Positions 1,489-60,902 of a DNA stretch of 64,000 bases are shown one piece after another. This DNA comes from Escherichia coli 042 (GTDB lineage Bacteria > Pseudomonadota > Gammaproteobacteria > Enterobacterales > Enterobacteriaceae), in the NCBI RefSeq assembly GCF_000027125.1, contig NC_017626.1; one strand, given 5' to 3'. The notes under the pieces were generated by a model. That model saw only the letters and a program-made list of their open reading frames with translations, was not told the DNA's origin and made no database searches. Positions within the stretch are counted from its first letter, which is position 1. Each line of letters begins with the position of its first letter. The translations under genes and the position numbers were made by a program.

Positions 1489-2670
1489 ATGCATAACTCC
1501 CCCGCAGTCTCCAGCGCGAAATCGTTTGACCTGACCTCGACGGCGTTTTTAATCGTTGCCTTTCTCACCGGTATTGCGGGCGCTCTGCAAACCCCGACAC
1601 TCAGTATTTTTCTTACCGATGAAGTACATGCCCGTCCGGCGATGGTGGGATTCTTCTTTACTGGCAGCGCTGTCATTGGGATTCTGGTCAGTCAGTTTCT
1701 CGCCGGGCGCTCTGATAAGCGCGGCGATCGCAAATCGCTGATTGTCTTTTGCTGCCTGTTAGGCGTGCTGGCCTGCACCCTTTTTGCCTGGAATCGCAAC
1801 TACTTTGTTTTGCTACTCGTTGGCGTCTTTCTTAGCAGCTTTGGCTCGACCGCTAACCCGCAAATGTTTGCCCTTGCCCGTGAACATGCTGACAAAACCG
1901 GACGTGAAGCGGTGATGTTCAGCTCTTTTTTACGTGCTCAGGTTTCACTGGCATGGGTCATTGGCCCGCCGCTGGCTTATGCCTTAGCGATGGGTTTCAG
2001 CTTTACGGTAATGTATCTGAGCGCAGCGGTAGCGTTTATTGTTTGCGGCGTGATGGTGTGGCTGTTTTTACCGTCGATGCAAAAAGAGCTTCCGCTGGCG
2101 ACCGGCACGGTTGAAGCGCCGCGCCGTAACCGTCGCGATACGCTGCTGCTGTTTGTCATTTGTACATTGATGTGGGGCTCGAACAGCCTGTACATCATCA
2201 ACATGCCGCTATTTATTATCAACGAACTGCATCTTCCCGAGAAACTGGCCGGTGTGATGATGGGGACCGCCGCCGGGCTGGAAATCCCGACCATGTTGAT
2301 TGCCGGATATTTCGCCAAACGTCTGGGTAAGCGCTTCTTAATGCGCGTTGCCGCCGTGGGTGGCGTCTGTTTTTACGCAGGAATGCTGATGGCGCATTCA
2401 CCTGTCATTCTGTTGGGCTTGCAGCTGCTAAATGCTATTTTTATTGGCATTCTGGGCGGCATCGGGATGCTCTATTTTCAGGATCTGATGCCCGGTCAGG
2501 CAGGTTCAGCCACCACGCTCTATACCAACACTTCGCGCGTGGGCTGGATCATCGCAGGATCAGTGGCGGGCATCGTCGCCGAGATCTGGAATTATCACGC
2601 TGTGTTCTGGTTTGCGATGGTGATGATTATCGCCACTCTGTTTTGCTTACTGCGGATTAAAGATGTTTAA
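1489..2670 (+). CDS. setB: sugar efflux MFS transporter SetB
   Basis: 393-aa ORF, multi-helix hydrophobic profile, N-terminus [25 protein letters not shown]..., divergent from fruB as in K-12. Confidence 0.9.
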
Positions 2671-2921
2671 GGCGCGGTCAGCATTTCCAGATCGATAAGC
2701 CAGGTCATTGCCTGCTGACGCGAGTTACCGCACATTTCAGCGCTGGCTTGTAAGCCCGCACAAACTTTCGGTCGCAGTGGCGAGGTGAAAATTTTACAGC
2801 GTTGCTGTTCATCAAGCTGAATGCAGGGCGTATTGGCGGGCTTGCCATCTGGCATACCGGGAATAGGGCTGGAAATTGAAGGGGCAGTGCAACACGCCCC
2901 GCAACCCGGACGGCATTCCAT
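2667..2921 (-). CDS. yeiW: UPF0153 cysteine-cluster protein YeiW
   Basis: 84-aa product from the internal start [28 protein letters not shown]... of the 128-aa track ORF 2667-3053; Cys-rich; position between setB and yeiP. Confidence 0.7.
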
Positions 2922-3075
2922 ACGTTGTTCTCTTAAGGTTAACCACCGGATTGATGAGCGCGCACAGTACCACCTTTTTTGCACCAGCAAAAGTGCGAAT
3001 ACCACTTGCCCGAAAGGCCCGTCGCGAGTACTTTGTCGCGATATTTTTGACATTTTCGACTACAGGAATTTTTCG

Positions 3076-3648
3076 ATGCCAAGAGCGAACGAAATTAAAA
3101 AAGGTATGGTACTGAATTACAACGGCAAACTGCTGCTGGTTAAGGACATTGATATTCAGTCGCCCACTGCCCGCGGTGCCGCTACGCTGTACAAAATGCG
3201 TTTTTCTGATGTCCGTACCGGGCTGAAAGTAGAAGAGCGTTTCAAAGGTGATGATATCGTTGACACCGTGACGCTGACCCGCCGTTACGTTGACTTCTCC
3301 TATGTCGATGGCAACGAATATGTCTTTATGGATAAAGAAGACTATACCCCGTATACCTTCACCAAAGATCAGATTGAAGAAGAGTTGCTGTTTATGCCTG
3401 AGGGCGGCATGCCGGACATGCAGGTGCTGACCTGGGACGGTCAACTGCTGGCGCTTGAGCTGCCGCAGACCGTTGATCTGGAAATCGTTGAAACCGCACC
3501 AGGCATCAAAGGGGCATCTGCCAGCGCCCGTAACAAACCGGCGACATTGAGCACTGGTCTGGTGATTCAGGTACCAGAATACTTAAGCCCGGGAGAAAAA
3601 ATTCGTATCCATATCGAAGAACGCCGTTATATGGGTCGTGCTGACTAA
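3076..3648 (+). CDS. yeiP: elongation factor P-like protein YeiP
   Basis: 190-aa product starting [22 protein letters not shown]... at the ATG at 3076; the track ORF from 2821 is an upstream extension overlapping yeiW. Confidence 0.9.
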
Positions 3649-25808: not shown

Positions 25809-26266
25809 GTGTGATTAACGCTGGCCTGATTACTATCAAGCAACAAAACAATTAAGAGAGAACATTATAAATACTGGCAAAAATGCCCAAACAGGGGCAG
25901 GTTTTCGTTCAACCATAAAAAATTATGGCTGATGTTATTATTCAGTTCAAACCGTACGAACGAATTAATTGAACTAATAGCACTTCCGTTTTAAACGGAA
26001 ACGTACAATCGCATAGCTTAAACGACAAAAGAAATATGTTGCTTACGAATAAAACAAAGGCGACCGCAGAGGGTCGCCAGAAGGCATATATTAAACTTGA
26101 ATGCATCGCCAACAATGCCATATTTCCGGCTGGTGAGCAATGTGATTTGTGTGGTGGGCACACCTTCAACACATCCGACCACATGAGCAAGAAAACGGGA
26201 TATACTCACCAAATCCCTTATAAAACGGGGATCGGGATTACCACCCCGCTGGAGTTAACGGCGATA

Positions 26267-26290
26267 CAGACGCGCCACGCGTCTTTTTTT
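26267..26290 (+). terminator. candidate intrinsic terminator inside the alpA-icd gap
   Basis: cagacgcgccacgcgtc followed by T7 (GC stem gacgcg/cgcgtc, short loop), preceded by further stem-loops at 26058-26079 and 26226-26248. Confidence 0.5.
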
Positions 26291-26454
26291 GTATCGACGC
26301 ACACGCACGCCTTATCAATGGTGGGCTGTATGGGGCTGACTTCGGTCAGGCTGGTTTCCGTTAACACCAGTTGTGGTAACCCTGTACAGTCCACCGCCAG
26401 CGAGCTTACCACCTCCTGCGGTGGGTATATCCCAACGTTAACGGAGGCTGCCAA

Positions 26455-26860: not shown

Positions 26861-27148
26861 ATGAAAGCAAAAAATTCTGGCTTTACTGCCAGCGGTAAAA
26901 CTCGTCCTAAATTCATGCACGGCGATATTTACCGCGATAAATACGGCAGCACGGTAATGATTAAGGGCGTGAGTGAACGACGCATTACCTACCGCCGTGA
27001 AGGATACAAATATGACTGCGTGATGCCTGTTTATCAGTTCCAGCGTGATTTTACGCTGGTGGATCATCGTGAAACCGTAAATCAGAACCGTGCAGCAAGA
27101 TACATCCGCAAAATCTGCGAAATGATGGTTACTGGGGGCAAGAAATGA
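26861..27148 (+). CDS. hypothetical protein, translationally coupled to the primase gene
   Basis: 95-aa ORF whose TGA stop overlaps the ATG of the downstream 712-aa ORF (ATGA); basic protein; no recognisable domain. Confidence 0.4.
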   Translation: MKAKNSGFTASGKTRPKFMHGDIYRDKYGSTVMIKGVSERRITYRREGYKYDCVMPVYQFQRDFTLVDHRETVNQNRAARYIRKICEMMVTGGKK

Positions 27149-29283
27149 AACGCGCACCGAATTTAAAGCACCAGCCGAAAGACAAAATGACGGAGGTGAT
27201 TATCTTTGCGGGTAGTGATGCCTGGGCACATGCGAAAGAGTGGAGCGAATGGGCCGGAAAGCATATTGCGGCAGATGATACACATCCAGTTATTCTTGGA
27301 CCGGAACAACTGGCGAGTCTGGCAGACACGCAAATCATCGACAAAGGGCGCTATTACGTGCGCGTTTATCGTGCTGGTGAAATATCAGAGCAGCACCTTA
27401 CACAGATAGCGACACTGCTTGCAGTGGCGGGTGTGAAGGAGGCGCGTTGCTACCGCAGCTTTGTTGATCAGCAGCCGGAGGACTGGACACCGCGCATGGC
27501 TGGACTGAAGGATGATGCGGAACGCGGTAACAGTCTGGTGATCAACCTTCCGGCGAAGACAAATTTCACCGGAAATTATGATGACGAATTAAAGCCTCGT
27601 GTTGAAAGTCGCGTCGATGGTGTTTTCTGGGTAACGCCCAAAGTGGACAAGCAGTCAGGCGAAATTATCCGGCCTGAGACGTGGTTATGTTCTCCGCTTG
27701 AACTACTGGGAACAGGAACAATCGGCAAAGAGCATTACCGCGTGATGCGCTGGAAAAAACCAGCAAACCATGAGGTCATTACAATGGCGGTCCCGTGCGG
27801 AGGCATTGGTGACCGTGACGGCTGGCGGTTGCTGAAAGACCACGGCCTTAACGTGACGACCAACGGCAAATACAGGGCTATCCTGGCTGACTGGATGCAG
27901 TTAAGCGGAAACCATGAGGAATGGCAGTTAAGCACAACAACGGGGTGGCATTTTGGTGCGTACATCATGCCGGATGGTTCGATCATCGGTGAATCAGAGA
28001 AACCCATCCTGTTTACCGGAAAAACTGCCGCTGTTAATGGCTATTCCGTGGCGGGAACAGCGGAGGGCTGGCGCGATACCGTGGCACGGCTGGCTGGTGG
28101 TAATCCGTCCATGATGCTGGGTGTGGCGGTATCGCTATCTGCACCATTAATCGGGCTGGTGGGTGCTGACGGCTTCGGGGTTCATCTTTTTGAGCAATCA
28201 TCAGCAGGTAAAACCACCACACAGAACATTGCATCAAGTTTATGGGGAGAGCCGGACGCGCAACGGCTGACCTGGTACGGAACGGCGTTAGGTATCGCCA
28301 ACGAGGCCGAAGCACATAATGACGGGCTGTTACCCCTGGATGAAATAGGCCAGGCCGGAAACGCACGGGAAGTGTCCACGTCGGCTTATACGCTGTTTAA
28401 CGGTTCGGGGAAATTACAGGGGGCGAAGGACGGCGGCAACAGGGAGATAAAACACTGGCGAACAGTGGCAATCAGTACCGGAGAAATGGACGTTGAAACA
28501 TTCCTCAAAAGTGAGGGGATAAAAGTCAAGGCTGGGCAGCTTGTCCGGTTGCTTAACGTGCCGATGGAGAAGTCCACGCAGTTTCACGAATACAGCACAG
28601 GAAAGGCGCACGCAGACGCGTTAAAGGATGCCTGGACAGCAAATCACGGGGCGGCAGGTCGTGAGTGGATTAAATGGCTAGCAGCCCACCAACAGGAGGC
28701 TAAGGACACGGTAAGGGCATGCCGTGAACGGTGGCGCAACCTGATACCGGAGAGCTACGGCGAACAGGTTCACCGCGTAGGGGAACGATTCGCCATACTG
28801 GAGGCCGCGCTTGTGCTGTCAGGCAATGTTACGGGCTGGGATGTTCAGGCGTGCCGTGATGCCATTCAGCATAACTTTAATGCCTGGGTGAAGGAGTTCG
28901 GCACGGGTAACAAGGAACACAGGCAGATTATTGAACAGGCAGAGGCATTTCTTACTGCCTACGGCATGAGCAGGTTTGCGCCTGTCAATTATGACCCTGC
29001 AAGCCTGCCGATTTCAGAACTGTACGGCTACAGGGAAAGCGAGGGGCGTTACGGTGAGCCTGTTTTGTTTTACGTCCTGCCGGAGCCATTTAAATCGCAT
29101 GTGGCGAAGGGATTTAACAAGGATGCCGTAGCAAGAGCCCTTCACGAAGCCGGAATGCTGAAAAAGCCAGCCAGCGGGGAAGGATGGCAAATCAGAACAC
29201 CACGTCTTAAGCACATGAAGGGGGCACGACTAAGGGTGTACGGCCTTTTACTTGCACAGGATCATGATGATGAAGGTGGTTAA
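27145..29283 (+). CDS. primase/helicase-like replication initiation protein (P4 alpha-like; P-loop NTPase core)
   Basis: 712-aa ORF; central Walker A-like FEQSSAGKTTTQN followed by acidic DE-type motifs (LPLDEIG); the size and the iterons immediately downstream fit a satellite replication protein. An alternative start at 27187 (MTEVIIFAG) is possible. Confidence 0.65.
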   Translation: MKRAPNLKHQPKDKMTEVIIFAGSDAWAHAKEWSEWAGKHIAADDTHPVILGPEQLASLADTQIIDKGRYYVRVYRAGEISEQHLTQIATLLAVAGVKEARCYRSFVDQQPEDWTPRMAGLKDDAERGNSLVINLPAKTNFTGNYDDELKPRVESRVDGVFWVTPKVDKQSGEIIRPETWLCSPLELLGTGTIGKEHYRVMRWKKPANHEVITMAVPCGGIGDRDGWRLLKDHGLNVTTNGKYRAILADWMQLSGNHEEWQLSTTTGWHFGAYIMPDGSIIGESEKPILFTGKTAAVNGYSVAGTAEGWRDTVARLAGGNPSMMLGVAVSLSAPLIGLVGADGFGVHLFEQSSAGKTTTQNIASSLWGEPDAQRLTWYGTALGIANEAEAHNDGLLPLDEIGQAGNAREVSTSAYTLFNGSGKLQGAKDGGNREIKHWRTVAISTGEMDVETFLKSEGIKVKAGQLVRLLNVPMEKSTQFHEYSTGKAHADALKDAWTANHGAAGREWIKWLAAHQQEAKDTVRACRERWRNLIPESYGEQVHRVGERFAILEAALVLSGNVTGWDVQACRDAIQHNFNAWVKEFGTGNKEHRQIIEQAEAFLTAYGMSRFAPVNYDPASLPISELYGYRESEGRYGEPVLFYVLPEPFKSHVAKGFNKDAVARALHEAGMLKKPASGEGWQIRTPRLKHMKGARLRVYGLLLAQDHDDEGG

Positions 29284-29308: not shown

Positions 29309-29443
29309 CTTGTCCCACCTGTCCCAACCTGTGAGAAACACACATAACATACTGAATTATATTGGGTAATATCAGAAAAAGTGGGACAAGAGCGGGACAA
29401 GTTAAGGTGATTTTGGGACAAGTTAGGAGCATTTTGGGACAAG
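29309..29443. repeat. iteron cluster 1 (GGGACAAG repeats), putative origin of replication
   Basis: Inverted copies CTTGTCCC at 29309-29316 and ctgtccca at 29319-29326, an AT-rich spacer, then four direct GGGACAAG copies at 29383-29390, 29394-29401, 29415-29422 and 29436-29443; immediately downstream of the primase gene. Confidence 0.6.
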
Positions 29444-30798: not shown

Positions 30799-30854
30799 TG
30801 GCAGTTCTGCATTATTTTTTGTGTTATTGAGTTGTAGAGCGTTTCAGGAGTTTT

Positions 30855-31064
30855 TTGAATCACATGAACGTTTCGCTGGTGGATATTCTTGACAAGTTGC
30901 AGCCAGGCCGACGCGTGCCAGCTCGCCGCAGTGCCTGGCATCTTCCGTACATCGTCTTTCTCGAACGGCGCGGAAACGATTTGATTGCGTTGAATCCCGT
31001 CACAAAGGATAGCGTTACGCTATCTCCTGAGAGTCTACTAGCCACAGACTGGGAGTACTGCTAA
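30855..31064 (+). CDS. hypothetical protein
   Basis: 69-aa ORF with a CAGGAG ribosome-binding-like site upstream; last ORF before the ~0.9 kb non-coding iteron region; no recognisable motif. Confidence 0.3.
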   Translation: MNHMNVSLVDILDKLQPGRRVPARRSAWHLPYIVFLERRGNDLIALNPVTKDSVTLSPESLLATDWEYC

Positions 31065-31597
31065 ACACAAACGCATCGAGGGTGCTGGCGTGTTGCCAGC
31101 CCCACCCCCTCCGAAATGATCCCCCAAAAAGTGCAAAATGATCCCCCATTAACGAACAGAAAACAAACAAAGAGCAACAAATAATCATTATTTACAATTC
31201 TTGACAAAAACACCCCCTATTTATAACCCTACCAAATTTAAAATTACATCTACAAAACAATAAGTTACAAAATCAGCAACGGATCATTTCGGAAAAAACG
31301 GTTAGTCCCTTTTTCGAAAAGGGATCATTTTGTTGCTTAAACTCATATGCGGATTACATATCAATACGCTAGTGATAGCCGTTCTGGAATGCCACAGAAA
31401 CGCGCTGTAATCGATTCTGGCGCAATTAGCTGTGCTAGGTAATGATTTACCTATCTGGGGATGTTGCGCACGTCTGGATTGCGTTACCACCGAAGATTGT
31501 GCGCATATGGTGGCTGTTACGGTGGCCTCCCGACAACGCAAAATTGCGGCGGCACAGTCGGTTTACCGCGCTAACACGGCTTGATTCACTCGCTCGA

Positions 31598-31717
31598 CTT
31601 GTCCCACCTCCCCCCCCAACTTGTCCCAAAACAGCCTAGACTTGTCCCACCTTACCTAATTTATTTCTAACAAAATCAATTTGTTAGGTGCTGGTGGGAC
31701 AGGTGGGACGGGTGGGA
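31598..31717. repeat. iteron cluster 2 (CTTGTCCC x3 and GGTGGGAC x3 flanking an AT-rich spacer), putative second cis-replication site
   Basis: CTTGTCCC at 31598-31605, 31618-31625 and 31640-31647; inverted GGTGGGAC(A/G)G at 31692-31699, 31701-31708 and 31710-31717; followed by (TA)n at 31729-31740. Confidence 0.6.
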
Positions 31718-31998
31718 CGGGTGGTTTTGTATATATATATACGAAAAATTGCATTCAGGAGGGGGGCGAAATTCCTGCAATCCATTACTTATGGAACTGT
31801 CCGCCCCGTCAAATTTTTACGCCCGCGCAATTAAAAAAATGCGTCACGCAGGTGGGCATGATGCCGATATGCTTGTCGGGTTCAGCTTTTTAAGGCGGCT
31901 GTAGATGTCAGGTTATCCGTGCTCATCCACCAGCCAGCTTCATAGCGGATAGCCGGAAAATGGTAACGGTTAAAGCTGTACATTTTTGCAGCAAATCA

Positions 31999-32023
31999 TT
32001 TTAGTTATACGTTTAGATATACG
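31999..32023. repeat. right boundary direct repeat (putative attR)
   Basis: ttttagttatacgtttagatatacg, 23 of 25 identical to 24034-24058. Confidence 0.5.
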
Positions 32024-32103
32024 ATTTCAAAACTCAATTAATCTACATCTTTAAAATCATGCAGTTACAGAATCAATTAAACTACTCTCGTGGCCAAAAA
32101 TCC

Positions 32104-32137
32104 CCAAAAAAACCAACCGTAAAGGTTGGTTTTTTTA
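32104..32137 (-). terminator. rho-independent terminator downstream of yejO
   Basis: aaaaaaaccaaccgtaaaggttggttttttt: hairpin with flanking A and T runs. Confidence 0.7.
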
Positions 32138-32197
32138 TATCTGCATTTAATTCGATAAACAGACCGCGACACATCACGGCCTGTTTATTTTCTGTTA

Positions 32198-34789
32198 TCA
32201 GAACGTCCAGACCACACCCGCCTGAGTATTCCACGGCGATTCTACCCCTGCGCCATTGCCATAACTGACAGACAAATGACCGCTTAACGTCGGGGTAAAC
32301 GATGACCTTATCCCAGCCTGATAAACGCCACTGGTTCCAGCCACATCATTATTAAATTTGCCATCGTCATTAACTTTCACCTGGTTAGAATCGGCGTATT
32401 CCTGACGCACGGCGGCTTTCAGCCAGGGTTCCAGCGTCGTACCGTTTTGCAGGTCCATGTGATAGCTTACCGCCGTTCCCGCTTCAGCCCGTAATATGCG
32501 GGTATTTCCCACATCCGCGCGCATGCCGTTTGATAACGTGTAGTCCTGACCATCAGTGGTAAAGCCGGTAAAGGCCAGATAGGGTCTAACACTCCACAAT
32601 CCGTCAACCCAACGGAACCCGCTCTCGACATGAGCACCCGCGCCGTTACTATTGTAATCGCCAAACGCTGTTGCCCCATTACTCATCTTGCCATGGATGG
32701 TGTTGGCAAAACGGTCAACTTTCACCACTCCATCAACATAGGCACCGTTCTGATGCTCCCAACCGGCATAAGCCCCCAGGGTGTAGCTATCGATATTGCC
32801 TTTGCCGCCGCGATCAAAACCAATATCAGAATGAGAGTAACCAAAGAACAAGCCGCGAATTGTGCTGCTTTCTTCACGGGAGAAACGGCTATCGATACCG
32901 AGCGTCAGGCCCGTCAATGTTTGCTCAAAGCCAGCTCCCGCATCAGTGGTCACGTTGTTGCGGGTGTTAATTGCCGAACTCCACATCGCCGTATCGTAAT
33001 TAACGCCTTTTACGCTACCAAGACGCTCACGCACGGTGTCCAGTTCTGCATCAAATACCAGCGGTTGTGCTGCCGCCATATTCAGCACATCAGTGGTTGA
33101 AGGGGTAATTTGCGCGCGATTCTCTGCCAGACTCCAGCTATGGTTGCCATTATCCAGCAAGGTATATTCATACGTACCGATATCAACAACGCCTCCGGCA
33201 TTGCCCAACGTAAATGCAGCATCACCGCCGCCCGTTGTTACCAGTGTAAGGCTATCTCCTGCTGCCGGGCTGGCACCGGTGTCCGTCACGAATATTTTGA
33301 AATCACCTGTTGCCTGACCGGTGACGTTGAGCTGATCGCTCTGATGATTAGCCATATCGGTACGCATATAAAAATTGCCGTTTCCCGACAGGGTATTGGT
33401 GGTCAACGTAATGAAATTTTCCGCACTTGCCGTCACTGATGAACGAGTCACTGGCTCAGCCATCATAATCACATTTGCGCCGGACATCGCAAGGTTGGCT
33501 AAGTTGAGGCGAGTGTTTTGGTTCGTCGTACTGTTATCGGCAATGATGGTCCATGCGCTATTTTCGAGCGAAACATCCGCTTTGCTGGTATCCACGGCAC
33601 CATGCGTTCTAAAAGAAGCGCCCTCAGAAACCACGACCTTACCCACCAACATAGCGGGTGCATAATTTATTTGCGGCTTCATGACCTCAAGAATGCCATC
33701 ATTCCCTCTGACTGAAACGTTAACCATTGTGCCAGCCCAGACATTAGCGCGACCATTGTTGATAACCATATTTTCAGAGATGGCTTTAGAGGAATACGTT
33801 ATACTTCCATTCTGATCTGATCGACCGAGATCATATACCGCATTTGCCTGCACTCTCGTACCAGTATCCTTTCCCAGCGATTGCATAGTGGCATGCTCAT
33901 CAAGGATAGTATCAATGGCCTGCGTGTCCTCCATAACAATGAGCCCGGAACCATCATCCAGTTCATAATTTTTTGACACACCATCTTTTATACTAAATTG
34001 GCCTTTACTGTTTGTACCACTCACTTCCAGCGCATTCGTTGAGACAATTAATTGTCCGCCTGCTTTTTTATCAACGCCAGTTGCAGTCCCGCCATCCATA
34101 ACCTCCAGTAAGCCGCCACTATCCACAGTGGTATTATAAGCGAAGTCATTTTCTTCAACTCGCAAACTTCCGCCGTTTTCCAACAGCATATTATTAGCAA
34201 TACCATCCTTGATATCGAACTGACCGAGACGGTTTGTTCCGAATACCTCCATGGCCCGCGTGGTTGTTTTAATCGCACCGCCGGCTTTCTGATCTACCGC
34301 AAATGCTAATCCCCCCTCTTTAACCTCCAGTAATCCTCCCTTTTCGATAGCGGCAAAGACGGTAATCCCATCTTTTTCAATAATTAAGCGCCCGCCTTTA
34401 ATGGTGGTATCATTCGCTGCGCCATAAACCTGTAGCACACCATTATTAAGGGTAGTCTGGTTTGCCGCGCCACCCATTTGAACAATTTGATAACCGTCAT
34501 TTAATACTGAGTATTCTGCGGTGCCATTCATTTCAATGTACTGATACCCTCCGTTAATTTCAGTATTACTACTTACACCAAATTCTTTTATATGCTGTTC
34601 TCCGCCAGGATTGATTTTCGTATTATTGGCGGTCCCATAAACCAGCTGGATATCTTTTTCCAGGACAACACCATCAACTGTCTCACCATACTCAACAGTT
34701 GATGCCAATGCTATGGGTGAATATAACGCTGTAGCCACCAGAACAGATATTGCGGAACGACAAAGAGAAACAGAACCAGATTGATGCAT
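32198..34789 (-). CDS. yejO: AIDA-I-type autotransporter adhesin YejO (apparently intact)
   Basis: 863-aa ORF; signal peptide, Gly/Asn/Thr-rich repetitive passenger (repeats of ...GG.L.V..GG.A.....), C-terminal beta-barrel ending in the aromatic residues ...VVWTF; located between proL and narP. Confidence 0.85.
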   Translation of the reverse strand: MHQSGSVSLCRSAISVLVATALYSPIALASTVEYGETVDGVVLEKDIQLVYGTANNTKINPGGEQHIKEFGVSSNTEINGGYQYIEMNGTAEYSVLNDGYQIVQMGGAANQTTLNNGVLQVYGAANDTTIKGGRLIIEKDGITVFAAIEKGGLLEVKEGGLAFAVDQKAGGAIKTTTRAMEVFGTNRLGQFDIKDGIANNMLLENGGSLRVEENDFAYNTTVDSGGLLEVMDGGTATGVDKKAGGQLIVSTNALEVSGTNSKGQFSIKDGVSKNYELDDGSGLIVMEDTQAIDTILDEHATMQSLGKDTGTRVQANAVYDLGRSDQNGSITYSSKAISENMVINNGRANVWAGTMVNVSVRGNDGILEVMKPQINYAPAMLVGKVVVSEGASFRTHGAVDTSKADVSLENSAWTIIADNSTTNQNTRLNLANLAMSGANVIMMAEPVTRSSVTASAENFITLTTNTLSGNGNFYMRTDMANHQSDQLNVTGQATGDFKIFVTDTGASPAAGDSLTLVTTGGGDAAFTLGNAGGVVDIGTYEYTLLDNGNHSWSLAENRAQITPSTTDVLNMAAAQPLVFDAELDTVRERLGSVKGVNYDTAMWSSAINTRNNVTTDAGAGFEQTLTGLTLGIDSRFSREESSTIRGLFFGYSHSDIGFDRGGKGNIDSYTLGAYAGWEHQNGAYVDGVVKVDRFANTIHGKMSNGATAFGDYNSNGAGAHVESGFRWVDGLWSVRPYLAFTGFTTDGQDYTLSNGMRADVGNTRILRAEAGTAVSYHMDLQNGTTLEPWLKAAVRQEYADSNQVKVNDDGKFNNDVAGTSGVYQAGIRSSFTPTLSGHLSVSYGNGAGVESPWNTQAGVVWTF

Positions 34790-56810: not shown

Positions 56811-56954
56811 TTTTTAAGATTATTGCGGAATGGCGAAATAAGCACCTAACATCAAGCAATAATAATTCAAGGTTAAAATCAATAACTTATTCTTAAGTAT
56901 TTGACAGCACTGAATGTCAAAACAAAACCTTCACTCGCAACTAGAATAACTCCC

Positions 56955-57047
56955 GCTATCATCATTAACTTTATTTATTACCGTCATTCATTTCTGAATG
57001 TCTGTTTACCCCTATTTCAACCGGATGCCTCGCATCCGGTTTTTTTT
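56955..57047 (+). ncRNA. micF: MicF antisense sRNA
   Basis: gctatcatcattaactttatttattaccgtcattcatttctgaatgtctgtttacccctatttcaaccggatgcctcgcatccggtttttttt: recognisable MicF sequence with intrinsic terminator, divergent from ompC. Confidence 0.9.

Positions 57048-60702: not shown

Positions 60703-60897
<195 letters not shown>

Positions 60898-60902
<5 letters not shown>

Follow-up and report, generated by a model that had tools for sequence, protein, structure and literature searches.

What would a second cluster of replication iterons be doing at the far end of a phage satellite, kilobases away from the replication gene? The locus that raises this question lies in a 64-kb stretch of DNA from Escherichia coli 042, which was analysed at its full length and is called the window below. 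The 8-bp motif GGGACRRG occurs 12 times in the window: six copies form array 1 (29309-29443), six form array 2 (31598-31721), and none lies outside the two arrays, compared with 4.85 scattered copies in shuffled sequences. This confinement bears out the original prediction that the distal array uses the same iteron as a site 2.2 kb upstream. Three functions had been put forward for it: a second, crr-like replication site, a partition site or a packaging site. Partition finds no counterpart in the island, where no partition gene is present. The answer that we favour, and that we regard as likely, is that array 2 with its distal edge (31598-31747) constitutes one half of a bipartite, Rep-dependent replication origin, with array 1 as the mirror-image half.

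The arrays belong to an island of about 8.2 kb, whose junctions were set by alignment to the empty K-12 site and to the attL in the window. Host DNA runs in the order yejM, tRNA-Pro(GGG) (23837-23913), island, yejO (32198-34789, - strand), narP and the ccm genes, an order taken from how a near-identical locus is annotated in strain PKF11. The + strand carries every gene of the island. The integrase (NF007246, E=3.9e-167) stands at one island end with a specific att site, and is followed in the same direction by alpA (Pfam Phage_AlpA, E=2.2e-5) and by rep (27145-29283), which encodes a 712-aa DUF927 primase-helicase (Pfam DUF927, E=1.7e-46; PHROG 'DNA primase', E=2.7e-166; PDB 8tch 'Pathogenicity island protein', E=9e-15). 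The order int, alpA, pri-rep is that of Gram-negative PICIs (PMC6092414) and, again as in PICIs, rep is followed by iterons around an AT-rich region, here array 1. The other products are an Icd-like protein, a DUF4222 protein, SSB, a ProQ/FinO protein and PerC. On its gene content and position, we classify the island as a PICI-type phage satellite inserted at the 3' end of tRNA-Pro. Of the induction, replication and high-frequency transfer by a helper phage that also mark PICIs, the sequence shows a cos-like site. Two adjoining Rfam matches, to isrK (52.9 bits) and to C4 antisense RNA (77.7 bits), fall in the ash/icd region (26213-26401); matches of the isrK/C4 type in PICIs have been read as relatives of the P4 CI/seqA RNA immunity system (PMC10111431). 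Outside the island, Rfam detects MicF RNA and two or three naRNA4 (REP-type) elements (56954-57047; 60708-60898), which are ordinary chromosomal features.

The non-coding tail in which array 2 lies had been delimited as 31064-31998. Its lack of any credible ORF is confirmed: no ORF there matched a PHROG family, and RefSeq places in it only a 50-aa hypothetical ORF, in some strains. Its right limit was drawn too early, as the non-coding stretch continues for about 100 bp beyond 31998, and the true right end of the island is the attR core (~32085-32100, + strand), a damaged copy of the tRNA-Pro 3' end (CTCTCGTGGCCAAAAA) identified by alignment with the empty K-12 site and attL. Compared with the tRNA end (23897-23913), attR has CTCGTGGCCAAA in place of CTCGTGCCGACCAAA. 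Depending on the position of the crossover, excision might leave the tRNA-Pro gene without an intact copy restored, a trait reported for PICIs (PMC10111431). Tandem TTTAGTTATAYG-like repeats (direct repeat family D2; 31985-32023, + strand), found also beside attL (24019-24057), probably bind the integrase as arm-type sites, judging from the analogous arm repeats of the P4 record. The left part of the tail holds a repeat set unrelated to the iterons: AAATGATCC occurs at 31114 and 31136 (+ strand) and at 31281 and 31322 (- strand), so that four of its five copies in the window fall within 31114-31330, where 0.66 would be expected, and one other lies elsewhere in the 64 kb. Between the direct pair and the inverted pair lies an AT-rich stretch that includes a TTGACA box, and a terminator-like hairpin followed by a T run is present at 31305-31335. 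Rfam gave no match for this region (31114-31335); with permissive thresholds over 30800-32200 it returned only weak chance matches, on the yejO-side terminator. An operator set could explain the repeats and hairpin, as could a gene for a small RNA. No DnaA box (TTATCCACA, at most one mismatch) occurs in the tail, an absence that counts against an origin.

Array 2 opens with the phased iterons (31598-31648, - strand), three copies of CTTGTCCC (equal to GGGACAAG on the - strand) at 31598, 31620 and 31641, spaced by 22 and 21 bp or about two helical turns. An AT-rich spacer (31649-31695) follows, which holds an IHF-consensus site, AATCAATTTGTTA (31674-31686), and then come the tight iterons (31696-31721, + strand), GGGACAGG, GGGACGGG and GGGACGGG, in which GGGAC(A/G)GG recurs at 31696, 31705 and 31714 with an exact 9-bp period. 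The conserved distal edge (31724-31747, + strand) is TGTTTTG-(TA)6-CGAAAAAT, which reads TGTTTTG(TA)6CGAAAAAT and is proposed here as a candidate DNA-unwinding element. Both sets of three repeats noted in the original prediction are confirmed, as is its G6 tract at 31761-31766; its C7 tract (31610-31616) is actually C8 (31610-31617), between the first two phased iterons, and the TA run that it placed at 31729-31740 is (TA)6 at 31730-31741, one base further right. Array 1 (29309-29443) starts directly after the rep stop codon with two iterons 9 bp apart (CTTGTCCC and CCTGTCCC), continues with an AT-rich spacer of about 57 nt and ends with four inverted GGGACAAG at spacings of 11, 21 and 21 bp. 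CTTGTCCCACC is common to both arrays, as is a 15-nt stretch that matches perfectly in inverted orientation (GTCCCACCTGTCCCA / TGGGACAGGTGGGAC). Alignment of array 1 with the reverse complement of array 2 scores 134, compared with 57 +/- 8 for shuffles and 75.5 for the direct orientation; judged by alignment, array 2 is an inverted, diverged copy, or mirror image, of array 1.

Two further properties are of the kind met in origins, and support the prediction of a second replication site. The IHF consensus WATCAANNNNTTR is present in 36 of the 53 distinct array-2 spacers from related islands, compared with 21 of 1060 background windows (2%). The TA run is highly unstable: the 20-mer at 31730-31749 is the second least stable of the 8.2-kb island, at -17.7 kcal/mol (mean -26.8, sd 2.9), and the spacers of both arrays are among the ten least stable island 20-mers.

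If array 2 is part of an origin, its iterons should be tied to the initiator. Relatives of the island were gathered from complete E. coli genomes and from IMG/VR, and the two-array design recurs in them with at least seven other iterons: GCGGGTTA, GGGACAAC, GAGACAAC, TGAACCAAC, GTGGGTTA, GGGAYAAG and GAACCACG. For each of these variants, the iteron of array 2 is that of array 1. Rep itself is mosaic in structure. Its central part shows at least 85% identity across all relatives, whereas the last ~110 residues can be sorted into classes that follow the iteron. In one locus (L021/L049, IMGVR_UViG_2541047875_000009), the first ~420 residues of Rep are 100% identical to those of the window Rep, whereas the C-terminal ~110 residues and the iterons are of the GCGGGTTA class. 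Because this natural chimera combines a different C-terminus with different iterons, we place iteron recognition in the C-terminal domain, and Rep is presumed to be an iteron-binding initiator with its specificity in the last ~110 residues. A profile search of the PDB with the C-terminal 150 residues gave no significant match, and AlphaFold modelled them, from a 19-sequence alignment, with a pLDDT of 43.6. The co-variation of array 1, array 2 and the Rep C-terminus indirectly supports binding of Rep to both arrays, and argues for a second replication site that uses the upstream iteron.

The relatives show two layouts of the origin. By our reading of a table of 80 Rep-bearing loci, about 12 of which end too early to tell, the arrays are contiguous in about 55, where they form one unit of about 300 bp, and the rep stop codon precedes the TA run by about 310 bp. 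A split layout, with array 1 after rep and array 2 2.2-9 kb downstream, is found in 13 or 14 loci and in the family of the window island; in the window, ssb, proQ/finO and perC lie in the 2.2 kb that separates the arrays. The second array, whose lack in homologous elements would have refuted the original prediction, is present in them, either contiguous with array 1 or displaced to a cos site, which is described below; the displaced form stands at the far end of the window island and of capsid-forming PICIs. Where a split layout includes the cos motif, the iteron on the cos side is that on the rep side in 12 of 12 IMG/VR loci, in L006 and L007 and in the window family, a match that covers only two iteron classes and loci that are not phylogenetically independent. 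The split-layout islands examined contain no second cognate array 2, and in three islands in which the cos-side array is foreign to the DUF927 Rep (L004, L005 and L043), a cognate array 2 is kept beside array 1. Taken together, these loci indicate that array 2 belongs to the replicon as a part specific to Rep, and that an island retains exactly one cognate copy of it.

For this composite origin we infer binding by Rep and IHF, a melting site, looping between the arrays and a requirement in cis. The C-terminal ~110 residues of Rep would first bind the 8-bp iterons; IHF would bend the AT-rich spacer, bringing the phased and the tight inverted iterons together; the duplex would open at the (TA)6 run or in the spacer; and the helicase would be loaded at the opened duplex. 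The two halves would cooperate side by side in most relatives and, here, across 2.2 kb through looping that is presumably mediated by Rep.

Variation among close homologues brings in another possible role. Six islands at this locus, up to about 5% different elsewhere, were compared. All six agree in the three phased iterons, and the cos segment is nearly invariant. Conservation of repeat number holds for the phased iterons but not for the tight 9-bp iterons, which are present in 2, 3 or 4 copies. Homopolymer tracts differ in length, as had been thought worth checking (C7-C10 and G6-G7), and the TA run varies between (TA)5 and (TA)6. A G/C homopolymer of 4-10 nt between the first two phased iterons is found in the window (31610-31617) and in L002, L005, L006, L007, L010 and L031, and its presence in several iteron classes hints at a conserved but length-variable spacer. 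A tight iteron number that changes from 2 to 4 between close strains is what one would see in a dosage element, and array 2 might be a copy-number control or handcuffing locus of the P1 incA or F incC type, which titrates Rep and pairs with array 1. Such a locus would restrain initiation and not be a replication start. A second cluster of the same iterons away from the rep-proximal site would suit this role, and so would the results obtained with EcCICFT073, in which Rep and the region just 3' of rep maintained a plasmid, and colony numbers were significantly reduced when that region was deleted (PMC6092414). The same plasmid maintenance is the only functional data behind the origin reading. 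Handcuffing is nevertheless unlikely in our view: array 2 is origin-like, with an enriched IHF consensus, an AT-rich spacer and the second least stable 20-mer start, and it mirrors array 1, with which it forms a contiguous unit of about 300 bp in most relatives. P1 incA, for its part, is a plain run of iterons.

The TA run also invites a reading as a promoter. In contiguous-layout islands of several iteron classes, the start codon of the next gene lies 20-26 nt after the TATA(C) motif, and Rep autoregulation at iterons is common in plasmids. Array 2 would then be a Rep-controlled promoter/operator, in which the tight iterons overlap the promoter and the TA run provides the -10 element; it would drive the next gene in contiguous layouts and, in the window island after circularisation, transcription that reads through cos and attP to reach int. 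A consensus scan, however, detects no sigma-70-like site at the TA run, no gene lies between the TA run and attR in the window, and the phased iterons and the IHF site would be left unaccounted for. We judge it very unlikely that this is what array 2 is for; a promoter role could exist alongside the origin role.

A bipartite origin must further be distinguished from a mere passenger. The TGTTTTG-(TA)n motif follows array 2 beside cos, and it is also found in contiguous layouts with no cos nearby; homology of the window to islands with other iterons starts exactly at TGTTTTG. Array 2 could be a relic of module shuffling: an origin half without present function that was duplicated or translocated, and that travelled with the cos end when islands recombined at their common TGTTTTG(TA)nCGAAAAAT motif. 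Several islands do have non-cognate arrays beside cos: an intact GCGGGTTA array 2 occupies this position in the F11 island (L002), in L004, in L005 and in the RepA-type capsid-forming PICI L120. The initiators of these four islands have another specificity than the cos-side array, or even belong to another family. Their iterons are without decay, and the junction of array with cos is constant, CGAAAAAT abutting TGCATTCAGG. Such arrays count against the bipartite origin; they may reflect recent recombination at the shared TA motif, or a functional link between the origin half and cos, and there is a slim chance that they allow replication in trans by the Rep of a co-resident island. Decayed islands, described next, point towards a relic as well: array 2 and cos remain in them, and either the fetched locus lacks a Rep gene (L045, L046) or int is down to a fragment (L119). 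Two observations are hard to reconcile with a functionless passenger: split-layout islands lack any further cognate array 2, and the one that they have matches Rep in every case; and the phased iterons do not vary among the six homologues. There is, in our estimation, little chance that array 2 is a relic.

The decayed islands are of two kinds. In L119 (E. coli 2017-02-1CC, 2528-3623), as in H18, H85 and H86, only a stub of the island is left, in which the initial 477 nt of int are joined to sequence that corresponds to the window from position 31374 on; array 2, cos and attR are kept and the rest is lost. In L045 and L046 (strains Br_112_kylling and MRE162), array 2 and cos are preserved, and the place of the replication module ahead of the tail is taken by an IS3-family element that has genes of a group II intron or a methyltransferase nearby; the 2.6 kb fetched upstream contain no Rep gene.

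The neighbour of array 2 was missed in the original prediction. The segment from 31748 to 31845 (+ strand) begins TGCATTCAGGAGGGGGG and matches the 3' end of many PICIs. It is 79.5% identical to phage phiP27 over 80 nt, across the annotated 10-nt cos-site and both its flanks, and 92.6% identical to the 3' end of the F11 island; it is also the 3' end of a capsid-forming PICI that encodes a TerS of the 'P27 family', TerL and HNH. By this homology we identify 31748-31845 as a cos site of the phiP27/HK97 type, with the equivalent of the cohesive end, TGTCCGCCCC, at 31798-31807 and cleavage predicted there. This cos type is present in 507 of 5426 E. coli genomes and in one phage only among 50,697 phage records. 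Since array 2 lies directly upstream of cos, no more than about 200 bp would separate this origin half from the point at which the packaged DNA ends on the right. The lambda-type cos1 and cos2 of EcCICFT073 were considered as the same site and rejected, as their sequences do not match.

With a cos site in place, the packaging function once proposed for the iterons needs to be weighed anew. Array 2 was tried as a lambda-style cosB, a reading suggested by a cosN-like cohesive end on the - strand and by an IHF site between inverted repeats. In such a packaging signal, the inverted repeats would act like the R-elements of lambda cosB and be bound by the small terminase or by a redirecting protein. 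Array 2 does abut the cos site, its layout resembles lambda R3-I1-R2 (PMC6739421 Fig. S1), and the GCGGGTTA array is linked to cos across islands with at least five Rep types. Yet lambda-type cosB repeats are specific to the terminase or cos type and lie on the side of the terminase genes, and array 2 departs from this on each count: its repeats co-vary with the Rep C-terminus and not with the cos variant, array 2 and the TA run occur with no cos nearby in about 55 of the 80 loci, the same cos type stands without any array in L121, L122 and phage phiP27, and the phiP27 terminase genes are on the other side of the cohesive-end sequence. The island, moreover, has no Rpp or TerS gene. The cosB reading was dropped on account of the phiP27 orientation, the co-variation with Rep and the cos sites that lack an array, and we hold it extremely improbable that the iterons form part of the packaging signal. 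What stands of the earlier proposal is a packaging site next to the iterons, but distinct from them.

How the island is packaged is a separate matter from how its origin is built. Its genes include no terminase (TerS or TerL), HNH, capsid or Rpp, and it must consequently borrow the whole packaging machinery. As its cos type is found mostly in PICIs, it might be packaged by the terminase and into the small capsids of a capsid-forming PICI, which would make it a satellite of a satellite. Beyond the single island, the origin half and cos together could be a 'replicate-and-package' end cassette that satellites share and that ties them into a network, a conjecture that we think has only a slim chance of being correct. 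In L120 (E. coli 06-00048, 1087-11272) and in L008, both capsid-forming PICIs, the cos end directly adjoins prophage DNA, first a truncated terminase gene and then head and tail genes, an arrangement that resembles a helper-embedded satellite (PMC10111431).

The closest parallel to the bipartite origin comes from P4. In the P4 GenBank record, crr immediately follows the alpha gene, ori is 4.5 kb away, and the same 8-bp repeat is present in both; the window likewise has two separated clusters of one iteron, one of them beside the replication gene. The island and P4 have in common an 8-bp iteron that is the same within each element and occurs in both orientations, partly at 9-11-bp spacing, in clusters kilobases apart; each is a satellite that depends on a helper and carries int, a cos site and a multifunctional primase-helicase. 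P4 alpha binds through a C-terminal domain, and ori and crr are both needed in cis. The differences are equally clear: the iteron sequences are not the same, P4 crr is a tandem 120-bp duplication whereas the island arrays are mirror images of each other, and the two origin halves are contiguous in most of the island's relatives. Rep is a DUF927 protein with no detectable sequence similarity to P4 alpha (best BLASTP E=1.3). By analogy, the origin in the window would work like that of P4 while standing outside the P4 family. The crr-like label given to array 2 is apt for the two-site design but misplaced by position, where array 2 corresponds to P4 ori and array 1 to crr.

Among PICIs, the rep-side half agrees with the Gram-negative origin described by Fillol-Salom et al. 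2018 (PMC6092414), two iteron sets around an AT-rich region 3' of rep. That origin is confined to the rep side, whereas the far end of the present island has another array, inverted and equipped with an IHF site and TA run, against cos; by comparison of the related loci, we regard this distal array 2 as one half of a composite PICI origin. The full-text searches made turned up no description of a second, distal, inverted PICI origin array. The cos segment is held in common with phiP27 and with capsid-forming PICIs, whose packaging is HNH-dependent and of the HK97 type; unlike the latter, the island has none of the terminase, HNH, capsid or Rpp genes. Its cos also sets it apart from EcCICFT073.

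PICIs move virulence and defence genes at high frequency, and their origin has so far been described only as iterons next to rep. If the origin is indeed made of mirror-image halves that can be separated by 2-9 kb of cargo, origin-deletion and minimal-replicon experiments would need to include both halves, and so would engineered PICI vectors. The specificity of Rep would then be readable from its last ~110 residues, and could be reprogrammed there. Finally, the exact junction of array 2 with cos offers a testable lead on how replication and packaging modules may be shuffled among satellites.
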